40,925 bases of DNA. Origin: an uncultured Enterobacteriaceae bacterium. Its GTDB lineage: Bacteria > Pseudomonadota > Gammaproteobacteria > Eutrophobiales > Eutrophobiaceae. The stretch is from contig CAZXDV010000001.1 in assembly GCA_964639535.1 (NCBI GenBank), positions 1 to 40,925 of the forward strand, in the 5' to 3' direction. The notes beneath the pieces were generated by a model that searched no databases, was not told the origin of the DNA, and worked only from the letters and a program-made list of their open reading frames with translations. Below are positions 2,044-31,184 of the stretch, one piece after another (the stretch's first letter is position 1; the number at the start of each line of letters is the position of its first letter). The translations under genes were made by a program, and so were the position numbers.

Positions 2044-2231
2044 TTCCTGAACTCTTCCAGTTCTTCATCGCTGAGTGCGCGAGCTTCATTTTCCAGCATA
2101 ATCGGAATGTCATCTCGTATTGGATACGCCAATTTTGCAGAGCAGGAAATAAGTTCCTGGTTTTGCTTGTCGTAAATCAGCGGCCCCTTTGTTACGGGGC
2201 AGACGAGTATTTCAAGTAGCTTTTTGTCCAT
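2040..2231 (-). CDS. Trm112/UPF0434 (YcaR) family small protein
   Basis: 63 aa. [14 protein letters not shown]...[10 protein letters not shown] is the Trm112-like motif. It sits between lpxK and kdsB, as in E. coli and Pseudomonas. Confidence 0.85.
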
Positions 2232-3210
2232 CTATCACTTCCTTTAGCAATACATTCAATCGGTGTTCAAACGTATTTGTCATTTGCACGTCTATCTTCA
2301 AATAATAGCAATTTTGCCCAGCAAAGCTGCGACATTTTACGGCATCTTTTTCAGTCATAATTACCAGTGAGTCATCATTGAATTCAATATCCAACTTCCT
2401 GAACTGGTGATGATCCGGGTATTCATGCTTGATAACCTGCGCTCCGAAACTCCTCAGGCACGAATAAAAACGCTGCGGATTGCCGATGCCTGCAACGGCG
2501 TGCACCGGGTTGCCTCTTATTGTCTCAAAATCTATTGTCTTGCCTTCATCCAGTAATGACACAAGTGCGACAGGCACATATTCCATGAGAAATTCGTTTT
2601 TCCCGGCACGGGCATTGGCAACCACCATGTCCACGGACTCTAGTCGTGCAATCGCTTCGCGCAGCGGACCTGCCGGCAGAAACTGGCCGTTTCCAAATCG
2701 CCGATCCCCGTCTATCACCGCAATTTCAAGGTCACGGAACAATTCAAGATGCTGTAACCCATCGTCACACAAAATAAGGTCGCATGCTCCAAGGCTTTGA
2801 AGTTCAAGCGCAGCCTGGTAGCGTGCCGGGGCTACTGCAACAGGGCAATGGGTTCTCTGGGCTATCAGTACCGGTTCATCCCCTACCTGGTTGGGATTAC
2901 TATCCGGCCTTACCTGCTGCGGCCACTTTTTAGAGCGCCCACCGTAGCCCCTGCTGATTATCCCCGGTCGAAGCCCGGACTTCTTCAGGTATTCAGCCAG
3001 CCAGATAATCAAGGGGGTCTTCCCCGTGCCACCCACGGTGATATTGCCAATTATGATGACCGGAATATTCACCTGCCGTGTTGGCAGGATTCCGCTAAGG
3101 TAAAGTAGACGCCTCAGCGTGGTAACCGCGACATAAACCCAGCTCAGGGGCAGTAATAACAGATATAAAAGATGCTCCTCGTACCAGGTCTTTTGCAAAA
3201 TGTTATTCAT
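2212..3210 (-). CDS. lpxK: Tetraacyldisaccharide 4'-kinase
   Basis: P-loop [17 protein letters not shown], followed by ISRGYGG and CDDGLQH blocks. The ORF track begins at TTG 3219. ATG 3210 (MNNILQK...) is the more likely start. Confidence 0.92.
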
Positions 3211-3289
3211 CAGGCGCAAACTATTTCGACCTTTGCCTCACAAGTTCACAGGCATCATGAAACCGGGCCGTATCGGGTAACGTGATGTC

Positions 3290-3709
3290 TTATTCTTCGT
3301 CCATGGCTGTTGTGGCGAATGTGATTTTCACCAGGTCCAGTTGCCGCGCTGCGTCCATTACTCGAACTACTGCCTGGTGTGTAGCCTGGGCATCGGCGCT
3401 GATCAAAACCTGTGGCTCATCGAGATCGTAGGCTGCATTTCTAAGAGCTTCCCTGATCGTATTGATTTGCGTATTCAACAAGACCTGGTCATTAACGTAA
3501 ATTTTACCCTCTGCATCTATAGATATTTCAAGCTTATCAATTTCCACCTCAGTGTATTCTTCACTGGCTTCCGGCAAGGTGATATTAATTTCAGATTCCC
3601 TGTCAAAAGTTGTCGAGACCATGAAGAAAATCAGCAGCAAAAACACCACGTCAATCAGTGGCGTGATGTTGAGATCAACATCGTCTCTTCTCTGGGGACG
3701 AAGGTTCAC
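3290..3709 (-). CDS. exbD: ExbD/TolR family biopolymer transport protein
   Basis: 139 aa with the N-terminal block INITPLIDVVFLLLIFFMV, a single TM and a periplasmic domain. The GTG start overlaps the exbB stop (GTGA). Confidence 0.85.
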   Translation of the reverse strand: MNLRPQRRDDVDLNITPLIDVVFLLLIFFMVSTTFDRESEINITLPEASEEYTEVEIDKLEISIDAEGKIYVNDQVLLNTQINTIREALRNAAYDLDEPQVLISADAQATHQAVVRVMDAARQLDLVKITFATTAMDEE

Positions 3710-4341
3710 TCTATTTCTCCGTTATCGCTACCCTTTTCTCTCTGCCCATGCATCACCTCGATCATCTTCAATGCTTCCTGTTCCATGCTGACAATCAACT
3801 CGTCAACACGTCCACGAAAAAAGCGATAAAACATCAGTGATGGAATGGCAACTGTTAATCCCGCAGCAGTGGTTATCAGGGCTTCAGAAATCCCTTCAGC
3901 CAGGACGGCCGGATCTCCCACTCCCTGGGCGGTAATAACCGTGAAAACCTTGATCATTCCTATGACCGTGCCAAGCAGTCCAAGCAAAGGTGTAATGGAT
4001 GCGATAGTGCCAAGGGTATTGAGAAAACGCTCAAGGTCATGGGCCACGTGCCTTCCGACTTCCTCAATGCTCTCCTTCATCACTTCTCTTTCATGCTTGC
4101 GGTTGACCAGGCCCGCAGCCAGCACCCTGCCAAGCGGTGATGACACCCTTAAGTCCTGGATCCGCTTTGCATCAAGGTGCCCAACCTTTTCCCACTGCCA
4201 CACCTGGGTCACCAGGTTTCGAGGAGTGACCCTTTTTTTCTGCAAAGACCAAAGTCGTTCAGCCGCAATTGCCAGCGAGATGACTGAACACAGCAGGATT
4301 GGCCACATGATAAAACCACCAGCTTTGATTAACTCAAGCAC
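3706..4341 (-). CDS. exbB: MotA/TolQ/ExbB proton-channel family protein
   Basis: 211 aa. The C-terminal TM pair contains LGLLGTVIGMI and ISEALITTAAGL..AIP, characteristic of ExbB/TolQ. A GAGGAG Shine-Dalgarno (SD) lies 6 nt upstream of the GTG start at 4341. Confidence 0.85.
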   Translation of the reverse strand: MLELIKAGGFIMWPILLCSVISLAIAAERLWSLQKKRVTPRNLVTQVWQWEKVGHLDAKRIQDLRVSSPLGRVLAAGLVNRKHEREVMKESIEEVGRHVAHDLERFLNTLGTIASITPLLGLLGTVIGMIKVFTVITAQGVGDPAVLAEGISEALITTAAGLTVAIPSLMFYRFFRGRVDELIVSMEQEALKMIEVMHGQREKGSDNGEIE

Positions 4342-4396
4342 CTGTTACTCCTCAAAAATTGCACATTTTTTCGCATGTCTGCAGGTATTCATAGTG

Positions 4397-6679
4397 TCAG
4401 GGTGCTTTGCGGCTCCAGAAACGACTATTTTCCTGTCGATTCGTCGTCACAACAATACCATCATCCATCAATGCAATATCAATGGCGCCATGGCGTGACG
4501 TGTCCAGCACCCTGCTACCTGCCTTTTCGTAACGCCGGATTATATCCTGTTTTGGGAAACGGAATCGATTTCGATAACCCGTGGTAAATATGGAGATATC
4601 GGGTCTGACAGCCCTTACAAAGCCCACTGTCGAAGACGTCAGGCTGCCATGATGTGGCACAACCAGCACCCTGGAACGCAGTTTGTCCTGCTGATGCTCG
4701 AGAATCGCTCTCTCTGCTTTCCGTTCAATATCCCCGCTCAGTAACACAGAACCGAATTTACTCGAAATCTTTAATACACAGGAGGCATTGTTACCCTGGA
4801 ATGGCGTGTCTATTCCAGGATGGAGAATACGAAACTCCACTCCGTCCCAATGCCAGTAATCGCCTCGAACGCAGGGCTGCACCGGCGCCCGCGTGAATCC
4901 AATTGGCACACCACTTTTTATAGTCTTTATATCTATCAGCCTGTCCAGGGCGTCGAGCCCCCCGATATGGTCGATATCTGCGTGGCTCTGGACAAGCATA
5001 TCTACACTGTCCAAGCCCCTGCGTCGCAGATAGGGGTATATGACACCGCTACCTGCGTCAAAACGACTGCTAAATCGCGGTCCGGTATCAAAAAGAAGAT
5101 TATGCCCCCTGGTGATGACCATGGCTGCTGTGCCCTGCCCCACGTCAAATACCAGCATCCTGAACTCGCCATCATCCAGCCTGGCAGTTGAGGGCACAGC
5201 CAGTGGCAGTAACCAGAACAACCCTATCCGCCTGCTCGCCAGCCCGCCCGGCAGTAATAGTATGGCGGCACCGATAATAGTGCTTACCAGTGCCAACACT
5301 CCCGGAGACGGCACATCAATGCGACCGAGGGGTAAGTCGGCAAGGCCCTGCAAAAACGGCCAGAGTATCTCCAGGCTGCCAAGTGCGAGACCAAGCAAAG
5401 TGGAGGCGACACTTTCATTCACGAGCAGGAACAAGCTACCAGCCAGCACCAGTGGGACGGTAGTGAAACTGATCCATGGCACCGCAAGTGTGTTGGCGAG
5501 AAAGCCGTACAGCGGTACCTGGTTAAACAGGGATGCCAGCAGGGGTAACAGTCCCGTTGCTACAACAAGCTGTACGCGCCCCCATCGCCACCAGGGATTA
5601 CTCGTAGCAACCCTTGATGACATGGCAAACAGGATGACGCTGACTGCGCCAAAGGAAAGCCAGAAACCCGGTGATTGGCTGGAAAACGGATCAAGGAGTA
5701 AAACAAATAGCAGCGCCAGGCAAATTATCCAGGACACTTCAGCTTGCTTGCCCAGTAACTTCGCCCCTGAGTAGATGACCAGCATAAGTAAAGCACGCTG
5801 CGTGGGCACCGCGAAACCCGCCATGGCGGCATAACTTATGGCTACCACGAGAGACGCCAGGGTCGCAGCGGTTGGGGCCGGCATGTACCTGCTAAATGGC
5901 CAGAGCCAGCGGCAAAGGAAAAACCCAAATCCGGCAACCAGGCCAATATGTAAACCCGAGATCGCAAGCAGGTGACTTGTGCCGGTCGCCCTCAGTACCT
6001 GCCAGGTTTCACTTGGTACCTCGCTCCTGTCTCCCGTGACAAGGGCCGGCAAAAGCGCTCCAAGCTCGCTGTGTTTCCCGAGCGCCAGTAATTTATCTCT
6101 TAGATACTGGCGCAAAGAACCCAGGGTTGTCCCGCTTTCCTTTCGCAGCAGTTCGTTTCCTGCGTAAGCCTTTACGTACCCCGTGGCTCGAATGCCCCTG
6201 TGAAACAACCAGCCCTCATAATCAAATCCACCCGGGTTTGAAAAACCGCTGGGGCGTTTCAGCCTGACCATCAATTTCCAGCGCTCCCCTATCGCCAGCG
6301 CCTGCCGCCTGTTGAACCAGTTAAGCCTGATTTTACCCCTGAAATCGTGAGAAAAGCCGTCCAGGCCGGAAACCGAGTCAGCCAGGAGCTCAAAACGCCA
6401 GCTACGCGCATTCGAGGCAGGAAGAGAAGCAATTTCCCCCTCGACAATTAAATCCCGTCCTTCGAGTATGGATGGCAGTTCCTGCGAAAGTGATAGCGTG
6501 GCATGGAATAGTGCGACCAGCAGCCCTGCGCCGAAGTACGCGGCCAGTCTCAGTCGCGGGAACAGGTAGCCTGCGAGCACAACAGCAGGCAGGAAAAAAA
6601 CCAGGTAGCCCGGCGGTAATTCCCTGAGCCTGCAAAGTAGCAAAACACCAAGCAGGAAAAACATACATCCTGTACGCAT
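4397..6679 (-). CDS. comEC: DNA internalization-related competence protein ComEC/Rec2
   Basis: 760 aa. It has an N-terminal OB/DUF4131-like part, a polytopic competence domain and a C-terminal metallo-beta-lactamase domain (VFDVGQGTA ... LVQSHADIDHIGG ... VVPHHGS). Confidence 0.9.
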   Translation of the reverse strand: MRTGCMFFLLGVLLLCRLRELPPGYLVFFLPAVVLAGYLFPRLRLAAYFGAGLLVALFHATLSLSQELPSILEGRDLIVEGEIASLPASNARSWRFELLADSVSGLDGFSHDFRGKIRLNWFNRRQALAIGERWKLMVRLKRPSGFSNPGGFDYEGWLFHRGIRATGYVKAYAGNELLRKESGTTLGSLRQYLRDKLLALGKHSELGALLPALVTGDRSEVPSETWQVLRATGTSHLLAISGLHIGLVAGFGFFLCRWLWPFSRYMPAPTAATLASLVVAISYAAMAGFAVPTQRALLMLVIYSGAKLLGKQAEVSWIICLALLFVLLLDPFSSQSPGFWLSFGAVSVILFAMSSRVATSNPWWRWGRVQLVVATGLLPLLASLFNQVPLYGFLANTLAVPWISFTTVPLVLAGSLFLLVNESVASTLLGLALGSLEILWPFLQGLADLPLGRIDVPSPGVLALVSTIIGAAILLLPGGLASRRIGLFWLLPLAVPSTARLDDGEFRMLVFDVGQGTAAMVITRGHNLLFDTGPRFSSRFDAGSGVIYPYLRRRGLDSVDMLVQSHADIDHIGGLDALDRLIDIKTIKSGVPIGFTRAPVQPCVRGDYWHWDGVEFRILHPGIDTPFQGNNASCVLKISSKFGSVLLSGDIERKAERAILEHQQDKLRSRVLVVPHHGSLTSSTVGFVRAVRPDISIFTTGYRNRFRFPKQDIIRRYEKAGSRVLDTSRHGAIDIALMDDGIVVTTNRQENSRFWSRKAP

Positions 6680-9348: not shown

Positions 9349-10014
9349 ATGAAAATACTTGCGCTGGATACTACAACAGAAGCCTGTTCCGCTGCCCTGC
9401 AATCGGGCAATGACATTCACGATCTTTACCAGGTCGCTCCCAGGCGTCACGCCGAGCTCATTTTACCCATGGTTGACGACTTGCTGGGGAAGGCCGGTCT
9501 TGAACTTGCGCAGCTTGACTGTATTGCGTTCGCCCGTGGCCCCGGGGCATTTACCGGGGTCAGACTCTGTACCAGCATTGCCCAGGGACTGGCTTTTGCT
9601 GCGGAAGTACCCGTGCTGGGTATTTCCACACTCGCTACCATGGCCCAGGGTTATTCCGGTGATGTCAGGACTATACTGGCTGCGATAGATGCGAGAATGG
9701 GGGAAATCTACTGGGGCCTTTTCCAGCAGGATGAGAAGCATTGTGTCCAGGCGCTGGGGTCTGAAGCTGTTTGCAAACCTGGCGAACTTGAAATAAGCCT
9801 CGATTCAGACATCTATGGTTGCGGGACAGGCTGGGGCAAATACGAAGACATTCTTTCACAAAAAACCAGCAAGCATCTCGTGGGCATTAATCCCGCGCAG
9901 TTACCCAACGCAAAAGATATGCTACCTCTCGCACGTGAAAGCCTGGAACAGGGGAAATCTTGCCTGGCCAAGCAGGCAATGCCGGTATATTTGCGAAACA
10001 AGGTGACCGGCTGA
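9349..10014 (+). CDS. tsaB: tRNA threonylcarbamoyladenosine biosynthesis protein TsaB (YeaZ)
   Basis: 221 aa. MKILALDTTTEACSAAL ... ARGPGAFTGVRL is the typical TsaB N-terminal ASKHA fold sequence. Confidence 0.9.
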   Translation: MKILALDTTTEACSAALQSGNDIHDLYQVAPRRHAELILPMVDDLLGKAGLELAQLDCIAFARGPGAFTGVRLCTSIAQGLAFAAEVPVLGISTLATMAQGYSGDVRTILAAIDARMGEIYWGLFQQDEKHCVQALGSEAVCKPGELEISLDSDIYGCGTGWGKYEDILSQKTSKHLVGINPAQLPNAKDMLPLARESLEQGKSCLAKQAMPVYLRNKVTG

Positions 10015-10031
10015 ATAGAACCAATCGGCGA

Positions 10032-10610
10032 TCACGCAGCCCTGAGATAAACCCTTCCATCCTTGCTTTCAAACTCGGGCACTATCCTCGTCTCACTGGA
10101 GATACCACTAATGCCCGCTACCACGACAAGGTCAAACGCACAGCCCGTCGTGGATAACACGAGCATGACTCGCCAGAGTTCACCCTCAAGGGTAAACGAA
10201 AAAATACCAAGCAATGGCGTCAGCACCAGCGCAGGCGCCAGCAAAAAAACAAGGTATCCAGCGATGGACATGTCCTGCCGGCAGGCGCAGTTTATGGCCA
10301 GGCTGGATTTGTCCACGCTGAAGCTGATATTGCAAAACCGCACCCCGACAAGCAGTGCCCCGAGTATGTGCAGGATCTCGTGAACAACGATGAGCGTGAT
10401 AAATCCGAGGCAGTAGGCCACCAGGCCGATAGCGTGCAAGGCCTGAAAGAACCCGAAGACACCGTAGTGAAGTATTCCCCACGCCAGGTACAGCGATGCA
10501 GGCAAGGTTAGAATAATCCAGTAAAGCCGGTTAAGGCAGGCTGCGTCCTGTTTCAGTTCAATTAATCCATCCATATCCTTTTGCCCGGTTTTTAGAGTTG
10601 GCACCTGCAC
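10032..10610 (-). CDS. Polytopic membrane protein with HExxH motif (DUF3267 / putative zincin-like); candidate microcin immunity or self-protection protein
   Basis: 192-aa ORF immediately downstream of the microcin precursor and co-directional with it. It has 4-5 hydrophobic segments, with HEILH embedded at a TM boundary (LIVVHEILHILGALLVG). The start is uncertain (GTG 10610 or ATG 10574) and neither has a clean SD. Confidence 0.6.
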   Translation of the reverse strand: MQVPTLKTGQKDMDGLIELKQDAACLNRLYWIILTLPASLYLAWGILHYGVFGFFQALHAIGLVAYCLGFITLIVVHEILHILGALLVGVRFCNISFSVDKSSLAINCACRQDMSIAGYLVFLLAPALVLTPLLGIFSFTLEGELWRVMLVLSTTGCAFDLVVVAGISGISSETRIVPEFESKDGRVYLRAA

Positions 10611-10668: not shown

Positions 10669-10902
10669 TCAGGGAGTGCGATATCTGAGCTTGTTATATC
10701 CCTGGTAACCAAAGGTTCCAATCGCGTAGCCAACGCCAAAGGCGCTACCCAGGTAACCCAGGCCTGTAACCAGGCGCCCGGCTGCAGCGATATTTGTGGG
10801 ACTGAAAATACCACCTGCTCCGGTACCAAGGGATATTCCACCCGAGATATTTTCCAGTGTTGTTACATCCAGTTCTACTACATCAGCTTGTTCCAGTATC
10901 AT
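10669..10902 (-). CDS. Class II microcin / bacteriocin precursor with double-glycine leader
   Basis: 77 aa from ATG 10902, with AAGGAGAG SD 8 nt upstream. Leader MILEQADVVELDVTTLENISGG has hydrophobic residues at -4, -7, -12 and -15 and GG at -2/-1, which is the C39 peptidase consensus. The 55-aa core has 13 Gly, no Cys, no acidic residues and +4 charge (YNKLRYRTP tail). The gene sits next to a C39-ABC exporter and an HlyD protein. Confidence 0.85.
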   Translation of the reverse strand: MILEQADVVELDVTTLENISGGISLGTGAGGIFSPTNIAAAGRLVTGLGYLGSAFGVGYAIGTFGYQGYNKLRYRTP

Positions 10903-10946
10903 CACGATTTCTCTCCTTGAAAATGTGTAATGGTCGTGCAGGAATA

Positions 10947-10975
10947 ATTATCCTGTAGCGCATCAGCTTTGTCTT
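10947..10975 (-). promoter_or_regulatory. Putative sigma70-type promoter of the microcin precursor gene (-35 AAGACA, 17-nt spacer, -10 GATAAT), overlapped by a CAGGA-N7-TCCTG inverted repeat
   Basis: Read on the minus strand, GATAAT corresponds to 10947-10952 and AAGACA to 10970-10975. The inverted repeat at 10939-10955 overlaps the -10 element. This is sequence inspection only. Confidence 0.3.
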
Positions 10976-11427
10976 TGAGGATTCATGTCATACTTTCGGT
11001 GCTTTCCCGCCATGCTGCGCTTGTAGACCGAAAAACTAACGCCAGACCATTTTCTAAACGATTTGTAGAAATGCGATATATCGGAAAGACCCAGCAAGTG
11101 AGTCAGCATGGCGCCACAGCGGATACCCTGCTCCATGTAGGCATAGCAGCGCTGTTCCCTTTCCCTTGTCAGTAGCTGGTGAAATCCTGTCCCCTCGCGC
11201 CTGAGTTTCCTCGACAGGGTTCTTGAGCTCATGCATAAATGCCTGGCGACATTGACCAGCTGCAAGCCGGCAAGATCGTCCCTGCTTCGCAGGAAGCTTT
11301 CTACTTTTTCCGAGGTGGTGGATTCGGACCGGGCAAGCAGTTTGCGAATACTATCGAGTAAGTAGTGCAGGTCATTTCTTTCCAGCCCGCTTGATTTAAC
11401 CAGGTCTAGGATTTCGTTCCTGTCCAT
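10963..11427 (-). CDS. Small AraC/XylS-family transcriptional regulator (DNA-binding domain plus about 55-aa N-terminal extension)
   Basis: 154 aa with two HTH units (VNVARHLCMSSRTLSRKLRREG; LLGLSDISHFYKSFRKWSGVSFSVYKRS). The ATG at 11427 overlaps the ABC exporter stop by 22 nt. Confidence 0.85.
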   Translation of the reverse strand: MDRNEILDLVKSSGLERNDLHYLLDSIRKLLARSESTTSEKVESFLRSRDDLAGLQLVNVARHLCMSSRTLSRKLRREGTGFHQLLTREREQRCYAYMEQGIRCGAMLTHLLGLSDISHFYKSFRKWSGVSFSVYKRSMAGKHRKYDMNPQRQS

Positions 11428-13535
11428 GAACCAGGCCCTCCGGGTTTAAGTTGTGCGTTCTCCAGTCTCAGTATTCGATCCGCGAACTGAGTCCCGGGTG
11501 GCCTGTGTGCGATGCTTATTCTCGTCATCTCCAGGCTGGACAGGGACTCATATAACTTATCCTCCGTGCCGGCATCAAGATGGGCTGTACCTTCATCGAT
11601 AAATAACACCGATGGTTCCCTGTATATTGCACGGGCCAGGATGATCCGTTGTTTTTGTCCGGCGGAGAGCGCAGCCCCCAGGTCTCCCAGCTGGCTTTCA
11701 TATCCCATGGGCATCTGCTGTACCAGTTCATCGATGATCGCCAGTCGTGCTGCCCTTCGTACTCGTTCCATGTCAAGGTGATCGGAAAACTGGGCGATGT
11801 TCTCGGCAATAGAACCCTGGAAAAGCGTATCTTCCTGCATCACTACGCCAATCTGCCTGCGATACCTGGTTAGACCATAGTTAAAAATACTGGCACCACC
11901 GAAACAGACCTGGCCACTGTCCGCTGGCTGAAGGCCGGGACTGATTTTCAGTAAAGTTGTCTTGCCTGAACCTGAAGCCCCGGTGATGACAACTGACTCC
12001 CCGTTTTTTATGCAGATATCAAGTTTATGCAGAAGCGGTGTCACGCTCGATCCATAGCGAAAACTGACATCGTGTAGTGTCAGGTCTGCCCCCGCTTTTT
12101 CTGGCCCTGTTGAAACTATTGCTGAACGATTCTCAGGGGTATGCGTAGTGATGTCCGCAACCCTGGAAAGGTGGAGATCCAGTAAGCGATATTCCAGGTA
12201 CTTGTCGATAAAACCAACGGCATTTTCCGTGAAGTGGCGCTTGTAAGCCATGAATGCAAATATCATCCCTACAGTAAACTCACCTGCCATTGCCATCTTT
12301 ATGCACAGGTATACAAGCAATACGTGTTCTGTCGTAGCAATTAGCCCATTGATACTTTCAAACCAGATATTACATCGCTGACTCCTCGCACGTGCATTAA
12401 CAACATCTGTATAACGGTGCTGCCACAGAACCTGCCTGTGAGATTCTCCTGCAAGTGATTTTATGCTTGATATTCCTCTCAAGGTTTCAATAAAAACCGA
12501 GTTTTCCCTGGCCAGGCTTTGAACCACCTCCTGCTGAGCGTGATAATAAGGCCGATAGAAGATCGTTCGCAGAACGAGATAGGATAGCCAGCATGCAATA
12601 ACAATGAGCGTTAGTATGGGACTGTATATAAACATCATTACCAGGGTGCTCAAGGTCATAAGACCATCAATGAATGCCGCGATCACCCCCTCGGAGAGCA
12701 TTGCAAGTGGCGGTTCAATCGAATTAAAGCGGGAAATGATGTCGCCCGTGTGTCTTTTTTCGAAAAAAGACAGGGGCAGAGATATTAAGTGCCTGAATAT
12801 ATTGCAGGCCACCCGGTAACCCAGCATGCTTGAAAAATAAAGGATGATGTAAGACCGTAGTGCCTGCACCAGGAACTGGATCAATCCAAGACCGGCAAAG
12901 CCCAGTGCCAGCACCAGCAAAAACTCCCTGTCAAACCTGAGCAGTGCTTCATCAACGGCTAATTGCAGGTAAAAGGGACTGGCCAGCAACAATAATTGCA
13001 GGACTAAAGAAAGCATCAACACCTGCAGCAGGGTAAAAGCAGTACCGGGAAAGTTTCCGCAGAGCTCCATTAAACTCAGCCTGTTTCTTTCTTCTTTACG
13101 TTGAAATTCCGGGCTCGGTCGTAATTCCAGCACCACCCCGGTAAAGTGCTCGGAAAACTCTTCACGCTGCACGGTTCTCTCTCCGCTGGCCGGGTCCAGC
13201 AGTGAATATCTTTTGCCCCTGATACCTTGCAGGACAACAAAGTGATTGAAGTCCCAGTGAATGATTGCTGGCAGTTCCACCTTTGACAGTGCCGTCAACG
13301 ACACGCTTAAAGGCCGCGAAGAAAGCTCCAGCCTGTCTGCAACATCAACCAGCCCTTTCAACGTTAATACACCGGAGCCCGTTGCGTAACTGCCCGCAAG
13401 AGTGGCAATATCAATTTTATGGCCATAATACCCTGACACCATTGCAAGGCAGGCCAGTCCACATTCAGAGATTTCATTTTGCAATACAAGGGGAACTTTT
13501 TTGACCCCAAGGATGTTTAGCGGGCTACCATTCAT
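11406..13535 (-). CDS. Peptidase C39 domain-containing bacteriocin/microcin ABC exporter (CvaB-like)
   Basis: The N-terminal C39 domain has a catalytic Cys in QNEISECGLACLAMV and His in IIHWDFNHFVVL, a block closely parallel to E. coli CvaB. It also has six-TM ABC_membrane, Walker A GASGSGKTT, signature LSAGQKQR and Walker B VLFIDEGTAHLD. ATG 13535 forms an ATGA overlap with the HlyD stop. The track start at 13574 is an alternative. Confidence 0.92.
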   Translation of the reverse strand: MNGSPLNILGVKKVPLVLQNEISECGLACLAMVSGYYGHKIDIATLAGSYATGSGVLTLKGLVDVADRLELSSRPLSVSLTALSKVELPAIIHWDFNHFVVLQGIRGKRYSLLDPASGERTVQREEFSEHFTGVVLELRPSPEFQRKEERNRLSLMELCGNFPGTAFTLLQVLMLSLVLQLLLLASPFYLQLAVDEALLRFDREFLLVLALGFAGLGLIQFLVQALRSYIILYFSSMLGYRVACNIFRHLISLPLSFFEKRHTGDIISRFNSIEPPLAMLSEGVIAAFIDGLMTLSTLVMMFIYSPILTLIVIACWLSYLVLRTIFYRPYYHAQQEVVQSLARENSVFIETLRGISSIKSLAGESHRQVLWQHRYTDVVNARARSQRCNIWFESINGLIATTEHVLLVYLCIKMAMAGEFTVGMIFAFMAYKRHFTENAVGFIDKYLEYRLLDLHLSRVADITTHTPENRSAIVSTGPEKAGADLTLHDVSFRYGSSVTPLLHKLDICIKNGESVVITGASGSGKTTLLKISPGLQPADSGQVCFGGASIFNYGLTRYRRQIGVVMQEDTLFQGSIAENIAQFSDHLDMERVRRAARLAIIDELVQQMPMGYESQLGDLGAALSAGQKQRIILARAIYREPSVLFIDEGTAHLDAGTEDKLYESLSSLEMTRISIAHRPPGTQFADRILRLENAQLKPGGPGSWTGTKS

Positions 13536-14770
13536 GAGCGTCGCCCTATGGAGTAAAGGGGGGACATTAACCATTGCATGAAACTACGCCGTTCCAGGAT
13601 GATGTTTCCTGTCAGGGTCATCCCGGTTTGTAGTTTTATGTATTTTGAATGGGCGTTTACATGCTGCGAAGAGAGTCTTGCCCTGACTACGTAGACGGGT
13701 TCACCTATGCCGGGAGCCAGGGGTAACTCTCCCGGTTGAAAAATACCCGCGCTTATCCTGTTAATCCTGGCAGGATAGGAACCATAGAGCCTGTAAGGAA
13801 ATGCGTCGTACTGCAGACGCACTTCCTGCCCCAGGTTTACGAAACCCACCGCCCGGCTGGGCACGAAAAGCTCTGCAACAAGTTCATTTTGCTGAGGTGA
13901 GATGGACATCAGTACTTCTGCAGCTGTAACAGAGTGTCCTTTACCGGGGTGCTTAATTGCAATGATCTCACCGTCCACGGGAGACAGGATGGAAGTAGCA
14001 CTGCGGCTATCCAGCTCCGCGCGATGACTTTCTAACCTGGATTTTTTTTCACGCAGCTGCGCCAGCCGCTCAGCACTGCGTATCGCCAGTTTCCTGCGAT
14101 GACTTTGCAAGCTACCCAGTTTGCTCTTGCTGAGGATACGCTGCTTGTCGGAAAGTGATTTCCGTGCTAACTCGCGTAACCAGCCCTGCTCTTCTTCCTG
14201 GAGTTTTGTATCACTTATGAAGCCCTGTTTATTAAGGCTTAACTTCTTTTTGTAGTTCTCTTCCAGGGATGCCAATAATCGTTGCTCATGCACCGCGTGA
14301 GCCTCGAGCGCCTCCAGTTCCATCCCGAGATCTTTAATTTCCTGCTCTACCTGCCTGGACTCGTATTCAAATTGCCTCTTTTCAAGCTCTACCTGCCTGC
14401 CCACCTCCATTTCCTGGGCCAGCAGTGACTGCAACATCTTTGTATTGGCCGATTCGCCCTTGCTGTTTGCCAGGTGGGATTGTACCAGCGCGAGCACCTG
14501 TCCCTTTTTAACTCGTTCTCCCTGCACAACTGCAAGTGATGCGAGTGTGCCGGTCAGGCTGCTACGGATCTTGATGACACCGCTTTCGGGAACCACATGC
14601 CCCCTGACCATTTCGCTGCGGGCGTAACTTCCCATGACCAGCAGCGCAACAATGATCGCGAAAATTGTGGTGAGTAAATAACCAAATAAATGGAGAGCCA
14701 CGGGCTGAGGAAAAAACACTCGGCCCTGCAATCCATGCTTTTTGGCTGATATCGCTTCCTTGCGAAACAT
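13532..14770 (-). CDS. HlyD-family membrane fusion protein of the microcin exporter (CvaA-like)
   Basis: 412 aa. The N-terminus MFRKEAISAKKHGLQGRV.. followed by a single TM parallels CvaA (MFRQDALENRK..WQGR). It has a long coiled-coil segment, then a beta-barrel/lipoyl-like region. An AAGGA SD lies 8 nt upstream of the ATG. Confidence 0.9.
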   Translation of the reverse strand: MFRKEAISAKKHGLQGRVFFPQPVALHLFGYLLTTIFAIIVALLVMGSYARSEMVRGHVVPESGVIKIRSSLTGTLASLAVVQGERVKKGQVLALVQSHLANSKGESANTKMLQSLLAQEMEVGRQVELEKRQFEYESRQVEQEIKDLGMELEALEAHAVHEQRLLASLEENYKKKLSLNKQGFISDTKLQEEEQGWLRELARKSLSDKQRILSKSKLGSLQSHRRKLAIRSAERLAQLREKKSRLESHRAELDSRSATSILSPVDGEIIAIKHPGKGHSVTAAEVLMSISPQQNELVAELFVPSRAVGFVNLGQEVRLQYDAFPYRLYGSYPARINRISAGIFQPGELPLAPGIGEPVYVVRARLSSQHVNAHSKYIKLQTGMTLTGNIILERRSFMQWLMSPLYSIGRRS

Positions 14771-15025: not shown

Positions 15026-17944
15026 CTAGCGAGCCTGGCCGTGTGAATTTTCCTGGTAATCTTCAAGTGGCACACAGGCACAGAATAACTGCTTGTCCCC
15101 CCTGGCATTATCGATCCTGCCCACCGGGGGCCAGTACTTGTCATCCCTTATGTTGTCCATGGGGTAGAACGCTTCACGTTTCGTATAGGGCTTTGACCAC
15201 GAATCTTCCAGTAGCAGTCGATGCGTGTGAGGTGCATTGGTCAGCAGGTTGTTAACCGGGTCTGCCCTGCCTTCCTGCACTTCCCTGATTTCATTCCTGA
15301 TAGATATCATCGCATCACAAAAACGATCAAGCTCACGCCTGTTTTCGCTCTCGGTTGGCTCGATCATCAGCGTATCGGCAACTGGAAAAGACATCGTGGG
15401 CGCATGGAAACCGTAGTCAATGAGACGCTTGGCAACATCATCCACGCTTATTCCACAGGATTCCTTTATATCTCTCAGGTCAATAATGCATTCGTGTGCC
15501 ACCATGTCGTTTTTACCCGTGTAGAGCACGGGATAATGTGCCGAGAGTCGCCGGGCGATGTAATTTGCACTGAGTATCGCAACCATCGTTGCCCGGCGCA
15601 GGCCGTGCGCACCCATCATGGCTATATAGGCCCAGGAAATACTGAGAATGCTGGCTGAGCCCCACGGAGCGGAAGCTATGGTGCCTATGGTACCGTCCTT
15701 TCCCGCTGCCGGGTTGACCCCTTCCACCAGCGGATGGTCAGGTAAATATGGCGCAAGATGCATTTTAACGCCGATTGGCCCCATACCGGGCCCACCACCA
15801 CCGTGCGGAATACTGAAAGTCTTGTGCAGGTTTATGTGCATTACGTCCGCACCAATTTCCGCCGGGCGGCTGATACCAACCAGGGCGTTCATGTTCGCAC
15901 CATCCATGTAAACCTGTCCGCCATGCTCATGAACAACTTCGCATATCTCGCAAATAGCTTCCTCGTAAACACCATGGGTGGAGGGATAAGTGATCATCAG
16001 GGCTGATAGTGATACCGCGTGTTTCTCGGCCTTTGTGCGGAGATCGGCCAGGTCGACGTTGCCATTTTCGTCGCAGGCAATGATCACCACCTTCATGCCG
16101 GCCATGACTGCACTGGCAGGGTTGGTCCCATGGGCCGAGGCGGGAATAAGGCATATATTACGATGCCCTTCTGCGTTCACTTCCTGGAACTTCCTGATCA
16201 CCAGCAGCCCGGCATACTCTCCCTGCGAACCGGCGTTAGGTTGCAGTGAAAAAGCCGAAAACCCGGTCAGGTCACACAGCATATCCTCAAGTTCCTCGAA
16301 CATCTGCTGGTAACCCTGGCACTGCTCCAGTGGAGCAAAGGGATGCATCGAGCTGAATTCCCGGTAAGAAAGGGCCTGTAGCTCCGTCGCTGCATTTAAT
16401 TTCATGGTACAGGAGCCAAGTGGAATCATGGCACGATCAAGAGCGATATCCCTGCGTGCCAGCCAACGCATGTAACGCATCATTTCTGTTTCACTGTGGT
16501 AAAGCTCAAATACCGGGTGAGTAAGGATCTCGTCCTGGCGTAGCATGGCTTGCGGAATATTTTCTTCTACCAGCTCATCCAGCTGTTCTACATCGGGAAG
16601 TCCGTCAGCACCCGCGGAGAATGCAGCCCAGACCTTGCGTATTTCTTTCACGGTCGTGGTTTCATCGAGGCTGATACCGAGCGTATCCGCATCGACCACG
16701 CGCAGGTTAATACGAGATTCCCGCGCCTTTGCAGCGATACGCCGGGCACGGCTTGTGGCGGTAACCGTAAGCGTGTCAAAAAAGCACTGGTGTACCAGCT
16801 GAAATCCCATCTGCTGAAGACCAAGGCCAAGAACCTGGGCCAGGCGATGGACTCGCCCGGCAATCAATCCCAGGCCCCGTGGCCCGTGATATATTGCATA
16901 GAAACCCGCAATCACCGCCAGCAGCACCTGGGACGTACAGATATTACTGGTCGCCTTTTCACGGCGTATATGCTGCTCCCTGGTCTGCAGCGCCATGCGC
17001 AGGGCAACTTCGCCATTGTTGTCCGCTGATACACCGATTACGCGTCCCGGCATTGAGCGAACATACTTTTCCCGGGTTGCAAAAAATGCCGCATGCGGGC
17101 CGCCATATCCCATGGAAACGCCAAAACGTTGACTACTGCCAACAACGATGTCAGCGCCCATTTGTCCCGGCGACTTCAGCAGGACAAGTGCGAGGATATC
17201 TGCCGCTACAGTGACTATGCTGCCAGTCTCTTTTGCCGCGGCTATTATCCCGTCAAGATTCCTGACAGAACCACTACTCCCTGGATATTGCAGGAGAACA
17301 CCAAACACATCATCGAGATTGTACTGCCCAAGAGGGTCTCCCACGATGACCTCGTAGCCAAAATATTTAGCCCGGGTTTTAACCACCGCGATGGTTTGGG
17401 GATGACAGTCATGGTCGACGAAAAAGCAGTTACCGTGATTCTTGCCCACACGCCTGGACATGCTCATGGCCTCGGCCGCTGCTGTTCCCTCGTCAAGTAA
17501 CGAAGCATTGGCGATCTCCATGCCGGTGAGATCAATGACCATTTGTTGAAAATTAAGCAGGGCTTCAAGTCGACCCTGGCTGATTTCCGCCTGGTATGGC
17601 GTATATGCCGTGTACCAGGCGGGATTCTCCAGTACGTTTCGCTTGATAACGGCGGGCATGATGGTGCCGTAATAGCCCATGCCGATCATGGAGGTGTATA
17701 CACGGTTCCTCTCGCGCATTTTACGCAGGCGAGTAATTACCTCTCGTTCGCTAATGGTGTGGGTGAGTGACAGGTTCTTTTTTGCAAGGATGCTGCCGGG
17801 CACTGCCCTGTCGATGATGGCGTCCAGCGAGGCGAGCTCCAGATCATCAACCATGCTGCCAATTTGATGACGATCCGGCCCAATATGCCGACGAATAAAG
17901 TCCCCTCGCATTTCCAACTCTGCGAGTGTGTGTTTTCTCTTCAC
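15026..17944 (-). CDS. gcvP: Glycine dehydrogenase (decarboxylating), glycine cleavage P protein
   Basis: A single-chain P protein of about 970 aa. The N-terminus ..[19 protein letters not shown] parallels E. coli TLSQLENSGAFIERHIGP, and the PLP region [16 protein letters not shown] is present. The track ORF starts at TTG 17989. GTG 17944 is preceded by GGAGAGG and is my preferred start, but the start remains uncertain. Confidence 0.93.
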
Positions 17945-18047
17945 CAGGTCTGACCTCTCCAGCTCATGGTAAATGTTGCCCCTGTTCAAGGAGCGGTAAA
18001 TTGTCAGTCGCGCACCTGCATGCGCGACACTCGTTCGTACTACACGC

Positions 18048-28073: not shown

Positions 28074-28152
28074 GCCTGAATTCTCCCACCACGGGCACAT
28101 GGATAAAAGATTTTTACAATTCCTGCTTGATCATTGAAAAAATACCACTATA

Positions 28153-28183
28153 CTGCTCATAAAAGCACTGTTTATATTAACAC
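28153..28183 (+). promoter_or_regulatory. Two abutting SOS-box-like 16-mers (CTG-N10-CAC) in the SRAP/lexA divergent control region
   Basis: taCTGCTCATAAAAGCAC (28153-28168) and CTGTTTATATTAACAC (28168-28183) share one base. Each has an AT-rich centre and one mismatch from the gammaproteobacterial CTG-N10-CAG consensus. The second ends 1 nt before the lexA ATG. Confidence 0.45.
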
Positions 28184-28184
28184 C

Positions 28185-28790
28185 ATGATTACATTAACAG
28201 CCAGACAACTCGAAATCCTTGATTTTATTAGAGAAAGCATCAGGGATAACAACATGCCTCCCACCGTAGCGGAGATTGCACAGGCCATGAATCTCAGTTC
28301 TACCAACGGTGTGCGTGGTCATTTACAGGCCCTGGCCCGTAAAGGCGCCATAGAACTCATACCCAATGCATCAAGGGGTATACGCCTGCTGCAAATTGAC
28401 ATGTTTGAGCAGGGCCTTCCCCTTGTTGGCCGGGTTGCGGCAGGGCAGCCCCTGCTGGCCGAGGAGAATATTGAAGATTACAAGCAGGTAGACCCGGCGC
28501 TTTTTCAGCCTGCAGCCGACTACCTGCTACGTGTACAGGGAGAAAGTATGCGTGATGTAGGCATCCTTGATGGTGATTTGCTGGCGGTGCATCGCCGGCC
28601 CACCGCCGAGGATGGAGAAATCGTAGTAGCACGACTGGAGGATGAAGTCACTGTCAAACGCCTTAACCGGCAAGGCCACATGGTCTACCTGGAAGCGGAA
28701 AATCCCGATTTCCGGGCTATAGAGGTCAACCTGAAAGAAAGCACACTGGACATAGAAGGTATCGCGGTAGGGGTCATACGCCCCCTCTAA
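28185..28790 (+). CDS. lexA: LexA repressor
   Basis: From ATG 28185, MITLTARQLEILDFIRESI..MPPTVAEIAQ aligns with E. coli MKALTARQQEVFDLIRDHI..MPPTRAEIAQ. The Ala-Gly cleavage region (VAAGQP) and the catalytic Ser (GESM) and Lys (VKRL) are present. The track start at TTG 28134 is an artefactual extension. Confidence 0.95.
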   Translation: MITLTARQLEILDFIRESIRDNNMPPTVAEIAQAMNLSSTNGVRGHLQALARKGAIELIPNASRGIRLLQIDMFEQGLPLVGRVAAGQPLLAEENIEDYKQVDPALFQPAADYLLRVQGESMRDVGILDGDLLAVHRRPTAEDGEIVVARLEDEVTVKRLNRQGHMVYLEAENPDFRAIEVNLKESTLDIEGIAVGVIRPL

Positions 28791-28883
28791 ACAGTGTTAA
28801 CAAAATAAGCTCCATATGCCGGGTATATCTTCTCGGGCATAGTATTGGACGCCCTGCTGACGAGAATAAGCTGGAGAAATAGA

Positions 28884-29510
28884 ATGATAAATAGCCAATT
28901 ACAAGATCTTATAATCAACAATCCGCACGTCTGGCTTGGTGACGAAATCACCGAGTCAAAATCAGGTGGCATTCCCACTGGCTACCCGGCGCTGGATGCC
29001 ATCCTTCCGGAAGGCGGCTGGCCGAGGAATGCGATGATGGAAATGCTCACACCCCAGTGGGGCTTTGGTGAGTTACAACTACTCCTGCCGCTGATGCGTT
29101 CCATCACCAGCGAAAAACGCTGGGTGATGCTGGTGGCTCCACCTTATATTCCCTATGCTCCTGCCCTGGCGAATGCTGGTGTCGACATTAACTATATTAT
29201 CAATATCGATCCTGAAACCACCTGCAAGGATGCCATGTGGTCCGTGGAAAAGGCCCTGCAATCCGAAAGCTGTGGTCTCGTGCTGGCCTGGCTGGACTCC
29301 CTGCCAAATGCTGTTGTCAGGCGTCTACAATTGGCTGCCAGCGAAGGACAAACTTCCGGCGTATTATTTCGCCACCGGGAAGCAAAAAACTCACCTGCTT
29401 CACTGCAACTGCGCCTGAAACATACCGACCAGGGTCTTCATGCCCATGTCATCAAGGCCCGAGGTGCAAACCGTTATCGTTCTGCCACGATAAAGCTGCC
29501 TTTTCACTAG
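28884..29510 (+). CDS. imuA: ImuA (SulA/RecA-like translesion synthesis-associated protein)
   Basis: About 208 aa from ATG 28884, with a GGAG SD 7 nt upstream. It has the pattern GIPTGYPALDAILPEGGWPRNAMMEML...GELQLLLP typical of ImuA/SulA-like proteins, and it is positioned between lexA and imuB. Confidence 0.85.
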   Translation: MINSQLQDLIINNPHVWLGDEITESKSGGIPTGYPALDAILPEGGWPRNAMMEMLTPQWGFGELQLLLPLMRSITSEKRWVMLVAPPYIPYAPALANAGVDINYIINIDPETTCKDAMWSVEKALQSESCGLVLAWLDSLPNAVVRRLQLAASEGQTSGVLFRHREAKNSPASLQLRLKHTDQGLHAHVIKARGANRYRSATIKLPFH

Positions 29511-29647
29511 GCCACAGCAACAATCATTAAACGGTAAATTACAGGCAAGATTCACCACAGCGTCACTCCGGACTCCCCGCACCCCACCCCATACCCCGAC
29601 CGGAGTGCCGCTGATTTTTAAGCCTGGCTTTACCGGGTGATCTTGTT

Positions 29648-31183
29648 ATGCGTACCCTGCTTGATCGTTCACCCTGGTATGAGCATTTTGATGAACAGGC
29701 TCACCCACAGGATGAAAAATCTGCTTTAGCCAGGACTGATCTATGGCTGGCTGTCGATCTTCCCGAGCTGGATCTTGAATGCTCAGGGCATGACTACCAG
29801 GGCTCGGCATTTGTTGTCCTTGAGGAAGTCGCTGGCATGCACTATGTCCACAATGCATCGGAATTAGCCCGGCAGAAAGGGATTTCCCGGGGAATGACAA
29901 TCAATGCCGCGCTTGCGGTTTGCGAGACACTGAAGAGCGCTAATATTGACCCCGTCGCGCAGCAAGACAAGCTGGAGGAACTGGTCGCAGATTCCATGCA
30001 GTTGAGTTCACGGGTTAGCATTGCACCCCCTACGTCTTTTCTACTGGAAGTTGCCGGCAGTATCAGGTACTTCGGCTCGCTGGAGATGATTCAACAAAAA
30101 CTGGCGCAGAGCCTTAAAAAAAAACTGCAATCCACATTTAACATGGTTGTCTCCCCTGTTCCTGCCGCCAGCCTGTTACTGGCCAGGTCAGGTTATAAAA
30201 ACATAATACATGGGCTTGATGAATTACGTTCAGTGTCAGGTGCATTACCGGTTAATGCCTTGCCCATTGATGATAAATCTCTCTCGCAACTGGATAAAAT
30301 TGGTGTGCGTGTACTGAGGGATCTCTGGCGCTTGCCTGTCAGTGAGCTGGCTAGACGTTTTGATGCAGATTTTGTCAGTTACCTGGAGACCCTTCTTGGC
30401 AGGAAACAGGAGCTATTATCTCTTCACTATCCTGCGCCCCGTTTTAACAGGCGGATTTCTTTTACGCGGGACATGAGACAAAACCACGGCTTGCTACCTC
30501 ACATTGATAGCCTGCTGGACAAGCTGGTTGTTTTTCTCAGGCACTACGACCTTTATACAAATCATTTTTTGATCTACCTGGAACACAGGCAGCGTGATAC
30601 GACTGCCATGAATTTTTTCCTGAGACAGCCTTCGCGGGACAAGCATCATTTCCTGGGGCTGGTTGAAACTGATCTTCAACAACGTCAACTCCCCGGGCCT
30701 GTGATCGGCCTTGAACTCCTGGCCGAGGAGTTTCATGAGTTTCATAGTAAAACACGTGAATTATTCAGTCACGATCCTGGGAGCAGTGATGATGATGAAG
30801 ATATCCAGGGCCTGCTGGATCAGCTTCGAGTTAGACTGGGCCGGGAGAAGATTTCACACCTGTCCTGCTGTGCCGATCATCGTCCTGAATATGCCGGTTT
30901 ACTTTACCGACACTCCCCTGGTAGCAGCACCGCAGGCCTGAAGAATCGTCCGCTCTGGTTATTACCCGAACCTCACCCGTTAAGGCAGGGAATAAACCAG
31001 CTTTACTATAAAGGGCCTGTCCATATCTGCTCGGGTCCGGAACGTATAGAAACAGGCTGGTGGGATGGACACGATATACGGCGCGATTATTACACTGCTA
31101 TAGATGAACTCGCTGGTGGGTTATGGATTTATCGCGATCTGAAGTCAGAAAACTGCTGGTACCTGCATGGCCTGTTTGGCTGA
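29648..31183 (+). CDS. imuB: ImuB (Y-family DNA polymerase-like, catalytically inactive adaptor)
   Basis: 511 aa. LWLAVDLPELDLE near the N-terminus is the typical ImuB opening and the body is Y-family-like. It lies immediately upstream of dnaE2. Confidence 0.85.
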   Translation: MRTLLDRSPWYEHFDEQAHPQDEKSALARTDLWLAVDLPELDLECSGHDYQGSAFVVLEEVAGMHYVHNASELARQKGISRGMTINAALAVCETLKSANIDPVAQQDKLEELVADSMQLSSRVSIAPPTSFLLEVAGSIRYFGSLEMIQQKLAQSLKKKLQSTFNMVVSPVPAASLLLARSGYKNIIHGLDELRSVSGALPVNALPIDDKSLSQLDKIGVRVLRDLWRLPVSELARRFDADFVSYLETLLGRKQELLSLHYPAPRFNRRISFTRDMRQNHGLLPHIDSLLDKLVVFLRHYDLYTNHFLIYLEHRQRDTTAMNFFLRQPSRDKHHFLGLVETDLQQRQLPGPVIGLELLAEEFHEFHSKTRELFSHDPGSSDDDEDIQGLLDQLRVRLGREKISHLSCCADHRPEYAGLLYRHSPGSSTAGLKNRPLWLLPEPHPLRQGINQLYYKGPVHICSGPERIETGWWDGHDIRRDYYTAIDELAGGLWIYRDLKSENCWYLHGLFG

Positions 31184-31184
31184 G

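Follow-up and report, generated by a model that had tools for sequence, protein, structure and literature searches.

The stretch of DNA analysed here (positions 1 to 40,925 of contig CAZXDV010000001.1, assembly GCA_964639535.1, from an uncultured gammaproteobacterium; hereafter the window, 40,925 nucleotides (nt) in length) carries, between the genes gcvP (15026-17989) and tsaB (9349-10014), an island of five genes on the same strand. These encode, in this order, a membrane-fusion protein of the HlyD family, a peptidase-containing ATP-binding cassette (ABC) transporter (PCAT), a short regulator of the AraC family, a small peptide and a membrane protein of the DUF3267 family. The fourth gene, the one encoding the peptide, is the subject of this work, and it is best read as the gene for an unmodified microcin resembling those of class IIa, made as a precursor and belonging to a small family that lacks a name. 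We favour, with moderate confidence, the view that this peptide is processed by the PCAT, secreted and employed as a bacteriocin-type molecule with antibacterial function. The gene and its two parts are laid out as follows:

10669-10905, minus strand: open reading frame (ORF) of the peptide, 78 amino acids (aa) from a GTG start at 10905 or 77 aa from an ATG start at 10902, the latter reading MILEQ...
10837-10902, minus strand: double-glycine leader of 22 aa, MILEQADVVELDVTTLENISGG, with the alternative GTG start at 10905
10669-10836, minus strand: core of 55 aa, ISLGTGAGGIFSPTNIAAAGRLVTGLGYLGSAFGVGYAIGTFGYQGYNKLRYRTP, plus stop (core codons 10672-10836, stop codon 10669-10671)

An AAGGAG Shine-Dalgarno sequence precedes the GTG by 7 nt and the ATG by 10 nt, so that either start is possible; public collections record the peptide in the 77-aa form. 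Counted by script, the leader has Ile at position -4, Leu at -7, Leu at -12, Val at -15 and a Gly-Gly pair at -2/-1, exactly as described in an initial annotation made from the sequence letters, which also gave the limits of the 55-aa core (10672-10836) without error. The window peptide thus bears the signal typical of class II microcins, in which GG occupies -2/-1 and positions -4, -7 and -12 are hydrophobic. The core contains 13 Gly, no Cys, no Asp or Glu and four basic residues (R21, K50, R52 and R54), three of which fall within the last six positions of a C-terminus that reads ...NKLRYRTP, and in all these figures our recount agrees with the initial annotation; its six Tyr, on the other hand, came down to five, and the many small-xxx-small repeats it mentioned amount to eight motifs. 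A net charge of +4, a predicted isoelectric point of ~10 and an average mass of 5574.3 Da complete the description. In terms of size, the 77-aa precursor and the predicted mature form of 5574 Da fall within the range of class II microcins (ribosomal peptides of less than 10 kDa made by Gram-negative producers), a Gram-negative producer being indicated here by the flanking genes lolCDE, lpxK and exbB.

The peptide is a real and conserved gene. Orthologues were recovered on six other contigs, and the comparison of the core with that of its closest relative (92% identical, at a locus belonging to a metagenome-assembled genome (MAG) of the Gammaproteobacteria) gave 22 synonymous and only 2 nonsynonymous differences, which corresponds to a ratio of nonsynonymous to synonymous substitution rates (dN/dS) of ~0.02. 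Against the core of another relative, at locus L004 (86% identical), the differences were 35 synonymous and 7 nonsynonymous, and a more distant pair of cores, those of loci L002 and L003, still had a dN/dS of 0.09. The core is, in consequence, under strong purifying selection, while the leader, with dN/dS values from 0.2 to ~1, evolves faster. This constraint on the core, together with the existence of relatives sharing both leader and core and with a C39 exporter encoded immediately upstream, makes the peptide more than a chance ORF. An explanation of the locus as a non-coding RNA was also considered and rejected, as a search of the whole window against Rfam gave no RNA family.

The genes that would take care of processing and export lie at the head of the island:

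13532-14770, minus strand: HlyD-family membrane-fusion (periplasmic adaptor) protein, 412 aa, whose 3' end overlaps the start of the PCAT gene
11406-13574, minus strand: PCAT, 722 aa, composed of a C39 peptidase, a transmembrane domain and an ATPase; predicted leader peptidase and exporter

The transporter matches the Pfam families Peptidase_C39 (8.4e-35), ABC_membrane (1.3e-36) and ABC_tran (2.3e-26), and its alignment to PCAT1 (PDB 4RY2; E 1.3e-88) spans the full length. The columns of the C39 catalytic triad are all kept with respect to PCAT1, with the Cys in seCGlaCL, the His in nHFVV and the Asp in lDPasG, and therefore we are dealing with a processing transporter and not with an HlyB-type protein with a dead C39-like domain. 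The adaptor matches HlyD_3 and HlyD_D23 in Pfam and TIGR01843 (type_I_hlyD, E 5e-46) in NCBIfam, and the same HlyD gene occurs at loci L001, L010, L011, L013 and L018. The island thus holds the pair of secretion genes expected for a class II microcin, a catalytically complete C39 PCAT and a membrane-fusion protein, and at the loci of the relatives a PCAT and/or an HlyD, once accompanied by an OEP, was seen beside the peptide wherever enough DNA was available. Moreover, several relatives match bacteriocin-signal models over their leader, which, with the intact triad of the adjoining exporter, bears out the double-glycine leader of the initial annotation. Altogether, cleavage of the leader and export of the peptide appear very likely. 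As a separate observation on the transporter, its ABC signature reads LSAGQ where LSGGQ is canonical; the motifs Walker A, Walker B and H-loop look intact.

The initial annotation could not name the family of the core, and homology searching placed it in no known family either, Pfam, NCBIfam and PDB being blank in this respect; some weak matches to tet-MFS (E ~0.06) were dismissed as noise from a hydrophobic helix. A word-indexed search of 5.8 billion clusters gave only 4 relatives, all of them unnamed, and the wider family became visible only when 1.84 billion representatives were searched with a profile, which gave 25 hits, among them 23 peptides with lengths of 56-109 aa. None of the relatives has a name other than 'hypothetical protein'. 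The layout of leader plus core is kept across 28 family members, with a leader that typically reads (M)RELxxxELxxVSGG (conserved layout E-L-D...L..[IV]SGG) and a core motif that can be written as [LFY]GTGxxGIFSxxN[IVL]AAAxR[LF]xxG[LI]G...G[YW]x[IV]G[TS] or, more simply, as GTGxGGIFSxxNIAAAxRLxxGLG...G[YW]xIGT. Strict invariance is limited to two zipper glycines and the Gly at -2, followed by Thr5, Phe11, Ala19 and Arg21 of the core, which are nearly invariant. Cysteine is absent from all 27 family cores that could be cleanly parsed. The cationic character emphasised by the initial annotation holds for the clade of the window peptide and does not extend to the family, in which the net charge of the core spans from -4 to +11.

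Matches of the relatives to bacteriocin models (TIGR01847, TIGR03949, PF10439 and CCRG-2) are weak and restricted to residues 2-16, that is, to the leader. TIGR03949 and PF10439 were weakly matched by 10 of the 28 members, and the cut-off of TIGR03949 (21.5 bits) is passed only by a distant relative, P0021, with 24.6 bits; the window peptide itself has no match to this model at E<=1. Similarly, PF17508 showed leader-level matches in three relatives and none for the window peptide. Assignment of the core to TIGR03949, PF10439 or PF17508 was consequently rejected, since the matches of the relatives are confined to the leader, and as far as sequence comparison goes the core is a family of its own, previously unnamed. 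With regard to its distribution, a scan of the GTDB species representatives gave a single genome, a MAG of the Gammaproteobacteria, and a scan of metagenomes matched 153 stretches, none of which was confirmed. Eight relatives (P0013, P0018, P0020, P0021, P0023, P0028, P0029 and P0033) have 20-30 extra residues before the canonical 15-aa leader, which may be either miscalled starts or truly extended leaders, and the clade of the window peptide has 7-9 residues in that place.

An AlphaFold2 model of the precursor, obtained with an alignment of 28 sequences, had a mean predicted local distance difference test score (pLDDT) of 72.6. In this model, a short leader helix (residues 13-20) and an unstructured Gly-rich head precede one continuous helix at residues 35-74 (core positions 13-52; pLDDT 77-89), which includes the hydrophobic stretch LVTGLGYLGSAFGVGYAIGTFGY and ends in the cationic tail. 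A glycine zipper, A32xxxG36xxxG40, lies within the hydrophobic stretch of the core helix. Such a predicted architecture makes a linear membrane-active peptide plausible, as the initial annotation had advanced. The antibacterial activity of the mature peptide is fairly probable in our opinion, and for the membrane as its target we see about even chances.

The same helix, rich in glycine-zipper or GxxxG motifs, and the high content in Gly, Ala and aromatic residues bring to mind another kind of molecule: a surface-associated, self-assembling glycine-zipper peptide that would not be primarily a diffusible toxin, either a contact-dependent killer resembling the Cdz proteins or an amyloid of the biofilm matrix. 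The functional amyloid would be of the sort formed by MccAB1 or by the cyanobacterial EbfG, and the DUF3267 protein would then rid the membrane of the producer of mis-inserted peptide. There are precedents for both versions: type I secretion of small glycine-zipper peptides is known from the Cdz proteins (PMC5380434), and amyloid formation and biofilm building from MccAB1, a microcin of class II (PMC13188072). Moreover, the unusually strong conservation of the core fits a structural constraint, which gives this structural reading some weight. However, there is a single peptide gene instead of a CdzC/CdzD pair, the sequence is devoid of the GAV or GAA motifs implicated in the aggregation of MccAB1 and MccE492, and the cationic tail and the near-invariant Arg suit insertion into a membrane at least equally well. 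We consider this explanation improbable.

Returning to the putative secreted bacteriocin, its gene is directly followed by the one that completes the island:

10032-10574, minus strand: DUF3267 (PF11667) membrane protein with an HEILH motif, 180 aa from an ATG, or 192 aa if started at the GTG at 10610, further upstream

The position downstream of the peptide could be read at ten distinct loci, the window included, and in seven of them (the window, L001, L003, L004, L010, L015/16 and L017) it is directly occupied by a DUF3267 gene. The pairing is maintained while the peptides fall to ~38% identity with that of the window and the DUF3267 proteins to 28% among themselves, and in L015/16 and L017 it is found in unrelated neighbourhoods lacking the AraC gene. 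In the other three loci (L011/12, L013/14 and L018/19) the slot is filled by one to three small ORFs of 65-102 aa with multiple transmembrane segments and no protease motifs, which have the usual appearance of bacteriocin immunity genes. Two side observations were made at these loci. In L013 (7268-10021) and L014 (1754-4507), a 917-aa peptidase of the M16 family (PqqF-like) comes after the peptide and its three small transmembrane ORFs, with an OEP-HlyD-PCAT operon transcribed divergently; a distant member of the family thus has a protease of a different type as its neighbour. In L015 (2469-2726) and L016 (1869-2126), an 85-aa LytTR DNA-binding protein is encoded near the peptide-DUF3267 pair, replacing the AraC regulator, on a short contig with no PCAT within it.

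Membership of the window protein in DUF3267 is clear, with a Pfam score of 45.9 bits over a cut-off of 27.1. Down to 28% identity, the seven loci keep invariant H65, E66, H69, P114, L118-T119-P120 and C145-A146-x-D148, and this invariance of the HExxH motif, the Pro and the Asp argues for the importance of catalysis. Its Pfam match and conserved motifs, along with what has been published on a relative named TmcP, allow the protein to be regarded as a putative four-helix protease of the S2P clan. The cysteines of the protein also follow a pattern, which includes a conserved CA[FY]D motif: C98 and C145 are invariant at all seven loci, C96 only in an alignment of four loci, as part of an I-x-C-x-C loop, and they might serve as additional metal ligands or as a redox switch. 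The gene that adjoins the peptide thus encodes a four-helix membrane protein, putatively a protease, at the very place where three relatives carry small transmembrane ORFs, and the island has no other candidate for immunity. Since it stands beside the peptide gene, alternates with small transmembrane ORFs and is the sole candidate in the island, we tentatively assign DUF3267 the role of a proteolytic immunity factor, an assignment to which we give somewhat less than even chances. A little more doubtful, although still conceivable, is the step further, that the conserved pairing reflects a dedicated relation between toxin and protease in which the intramembrane metalloprotease would cut the transmembrane helix of the inserted microcin and so protect the producer. 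A protease acting as immunity protein reportedly exists for MvcC, a class II microcin of Vibrio cholerae, and hence from outside the Enterobacteriaceae, described by Kim et al. in 2024 (Cell Host Microbe 32:1959, cited in PMC12219008), and the assignment of immunity to DUF3267 leans on this precedent as well.

A different role for DUF3267 is suggested by the TMcins (TmcA, TmcP, TmcBC, TmcD and TmcE), a group of ribosomally synthesised and post-translationally modified peptides in which, as in the window, a bacteriocin with a transmembrane helix is encoded beside a DUF3267/PF11667 protein and an ABC exporter (PMC12328743, PMC13252029). Both TmcP and the window protein have the HExxH motif and a distal Asp. 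TmcP, the one DUF3267 protein characterised so far, belongs to the intramembrane proteases of the S2P clan and acts on a bacteriocin precursor embedded in the membrane, within which it removes the leader (PMC13252029). By analogy, the DUF3267 of the window could be a maturation protease in a two-step process, trimming a precursor seated in the membrane, for example within or after the GTGxGGIFSxxN head, with the PCAT removing the GG leader and carrying out extraction and export, and with immunity either absent or encoded elsewhere. The window peptide likewise has a long predicted hydrophobic helix, the catalytic residues of DUF3267 are strictly conserved, and the best-conserved part of the peptide family is precisely the segment N-terminal to the helix. 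Nevertheless, a complete C39 peptidase already explains the removal of the leader, and three loci keep both the head and the PCAT without any DUF3267, with small transmembrane ORFs in the slot. Moreover, TMcins are found in Bacillota and Actinomycetota and have a non-GG leader that is removed by TmcP, a universal disulfide made by TmcD, an escort protein, TmcE, and an ABC transporter without a C39 domain (PMC12328743, PMC13252029), whereas the window system has a C39 PCAT, a GG leader, no Cys and a Gram-negative host. We see maturation as an unlikely role, less likely than immunity, and identity with the TMcins was rejected on the grounds of the missing Cys, the C39 PCAT and the gammaproteobacterial host, the DUF3267 neighbour being the sole feature in common.

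The expression of the peptide gene and its DUF3267 partner may involve the following elements:

10963-11427, minus strand: short AraC-family regulator, 154 aa, consisting of a helix-turn-helix (HTH) domain and only ~50 N-terminal residues; overlaps the PCAT stop
10947-10975, minus strand: promoter-like site, AAGACA-17 nt-GATAAT, upstream of the peptide gene and overlapping the end of the AraC gene
10005-10026, minus strand: terminator-like hairpin just past the DUF3267 stop codon, from a consensus scan only

The regulator matches HTH_18 (1.9e-10) and HTH_AraC (5.5e-09) in Pfam, its gene is found directly upstream of the peptide in L001, L002, L003, L004 and L010, and the HlyD, PCAT and AraC genes overlap at their junctions. 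A longer version of the promoter-like site, TCAnAGACA-N17-GATAAT, is invariant in the six loci that were aligned (the window, L001, L002, L003, L004 and L010). The position of the AraC stop codon relative to this motif varies from locus to locus, falling inside the GATAAT box in L002, and in L002, L003 and L010 the Shine-Dalgarno sequence is set apart from the motif by an inserted ~60 nt. This pattern of conservation suggests a separate promoter, probably dependent on an activator, or else a control site for the AraC protein, serving the peptide and DUF3267 genes.

A regulator gene embedded in the operon also raises the question of a secreted pheromone of the ComC/BlpC type that would signal through the adjacent AraC protein. 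The GG-leader peptides exported by PCATs do include pheromones, and some leaders of the family weakly match the VP1, EntF and BlpC models, if only over leader residues. Yet a hydrophobic helix of 55 aa exceeds by far the known GG pheromones in size and in its membrane-like character, no pair of histidine kinase and response regulator is adjacent in the clade of the window, AraC proteins are cytoplasmic and this one has no ligand-binding domain, and the neighbouring slot is occupied by immunity-like transmembrane proteins or by a protease. Such a pheromone is therefore very improbable.

When the system is compared with those already described, the closest resemblance is to the class IIa microcins, such as MccV/ColV (CvaA-CvaB-CvaC-Cvi), MccL, MccN, MccS and MccPDI (set recently expanded in PMC12219008). 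As in them, a small ribosomal peptide comes from a Gram-negative producer with a dedicated PCAT and an adaptor of the HlyD type, genes for modification are absent, a gene for a membrane protein adjoins that of the peptide, and the core is Gly-rich, with the inner membrane as its expected site of action. The differences are several: the core has no detectable homology to theirs and no Cys or disulfide; the leader of 22 aa, with Val at -14, fails the published microcin signal expressions; the operon includes a regulator gene; in the slot for immunity there is a DUF3267 protein of 180 aa with HExxH instead of a small, non-enzymatic transmembrane protein; and the host is an uncultured gammaproteobacterium from outside the Enterobacterales, in contrast to the Enterobacteriaceae. 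A microcin of the MccV/MccL type (PF17508) was rejected, as the window peptide lacks a PF17508 match and has no Cys in its core, and the same exclusion of a ColV/MccL-type fold by the initial annotation is reinforced by the Cys-free cores of the parsed relatives. Its argument against a siderophore microcin of class IIb was also sustained, and this class was discarded, given that no Ser-rich stretch is present at the C-terminus and that the island of five genes is devoid of siderophore-attachment genes.

Outside the microcins, the Cdz system of Caulobacter (CdzABCDI; PMC5380434) shares with the window a Gly-rich zipper peptide with a presumed leader, type I secretion, a Gram-negative host and a membrane protein, and differs in having two peptides, a small transmembrane immunity protein and insoluble surface aggregates, whereas the window has one peptide and a protease-like neighbour (PMC5380434). 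A Cdz pair was rejected on account of the single family gene, the zipper and the type I secretion genes being present, a separation based on the published description of Cdz; for the same reason, only one family gene in the window, a two-peptide system was rejected in general. The Gly-rich bacteriocins of classes IIb and IIc from Gram-positive bacteria (lactobin A/cerein 7B, TIGR03949; PF10439) similarly combine a GG leader with a GxxxG helical peptide, but they are typically two-peptide, Gram-positive systems, and our family matches them essentially in the leader only. Altogether, the system shows four of the defining features of class II: the size, the GG signal, a PCAT with its membrane-fusion protein and an adjacent membrane protein gene. 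Class II microcins are already known to be abundant and highly diverse in sequence (PMC12219008), so a new core family represents a known kind of system, and what could be new is the conserved pairing of peptide and DUF3267.

The following scheme would account for these data. The short AraC-type regulator would drive the conserved promoter before the genes of the peptide and of DUF3267. In the cytoplasm, the C39 domain of the PCAT would recognise the 77-aa precursor through its amphipathic leader and cut it after the Gly-Gly pair. The 55-aa product (5574 Da) would leave the cell by way of the PCAT and the HlyD adaptor, with an outer-membrane channel encoded at another site completing the route. 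The mature peptide is expected to have a flexible Gly-rich head (GTGAGGIFSPxN), a glycine-zipper helix of ~40 residues with the near-invariant Arg, and a variable aromatic and cationic tail, and it may insert into the inner membrane of related bacteria, killing them by permeabilisation. As for DUF3267, its most likely function in this scheme would be that of an S2P-clan intramembrane zinc protease cleaving the peptide that enters the membrane of the producer itself, which would result in protection.

Several observations weigh against this interpretation. First, the leader, described as textbook in the initial annotation, falls a little short of the term, because with Val at -14 it matches neither of the two microcin signal expressions of Parker et al. 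2025 (Motif 1, R-x-[IL]-x9-G[GAS]; Motif 2, the Gram-positive variant, [KEQI]-x-[IL]-x9-G[GAS]). These were derived from enterobacterial and Gram-positive leaders, and among the 28 members of the family Motif 1 is found in 16 and Motif 2 in 4. In addition, the window peptide matches no bacteriocin hidden Markov model. Bacteriocin cores are usually less conserved than their leaders, the reverse of the present case, and a core conserved above its leader could indicate a structural or signalling role. No gene for an outer-membrane channel occurs within the window, and the promoter and terminator calls of the consensus scan, taken alone, are not above the shuffled expectation. With respect to immunity, the characterised TmcP is a maturation protease and not an immunity protein (PMC13252029), and the AlphaFold2 model of DUF3267, made with 4 sequences, had a pLDDT of 48.9, unusable for either the fold or its interaction with the peptide; a profile search of PDB with the DUF3267 alignment gave only chance hits.

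Around the island, the window is ordinary chromosome, with lpxK, exbB, comEC, lolCDE, gcvTHP and a lexA-imuB-dnaE2 cassette. The GC content of the island (0.46-0.53) matches that of its flanks, and the same gcvP-tsaB site is occupied in relatives whose peptide is only 46% identical; these two facts make the island an old resident of the lineage, and a recent horizontal acquisition, which was also considered, is not evident. Two stretches of the surroundings can be mentioned separately. The SOS mutagenesis cassette (28134-34280, plus strand) comprises LexA (28134-28790), an ImuB-like protein of the IMS family (29648-31183) and a DnaE2-type, error-prone polymerase III alpha subunit (31167-34280), with an ORF in the position of ImuA (28845-29510, plus strand) that has no Pfam match. 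On the other side, the genes after comEC are exbB/exbD and lpxK in the window (~2200-4400), and a phage-type integrase and several HNH and hypothetical genes in L001 (16402-20234), the contig of the closest relative; from its gene content, this is a predicted integrative element of the L001 genome that is absent from the genome of the window.

In a wider context, the peptide adds a fully unannotated family to the class II microcins, of ~25-40 clusters among 15 billion proteins, whose hosts are uncultured and apparently environmental gammaproteobacteria. Microcin-mining tools trained on enterobacterial leaders would miss the window peptide, because its leader fails the signal expressions. The mature 55-mer is a candidate narrow-spectrum antimicrobial and, having neither cysteines nor modifications, could be made synthetically or by heterologous secretion. 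On the other hand, the peptide-DUF3267 pair offers a clean system to study the role of the DUF3267 proteases in Gram-negative bacteria, and bears on the question of whether proteolytic immunity recurs against bacteriocins that insert into membranes. If the proposed immunity is true, this would be the first function for DUF3267 outside Gram-positive bacteria, and intramembrane proteolysis would constitute a mechanistically new form of bacteriocin immunity, a reversal of what is seen in the TMcins, whose toxin is matured by a protease of the same family.

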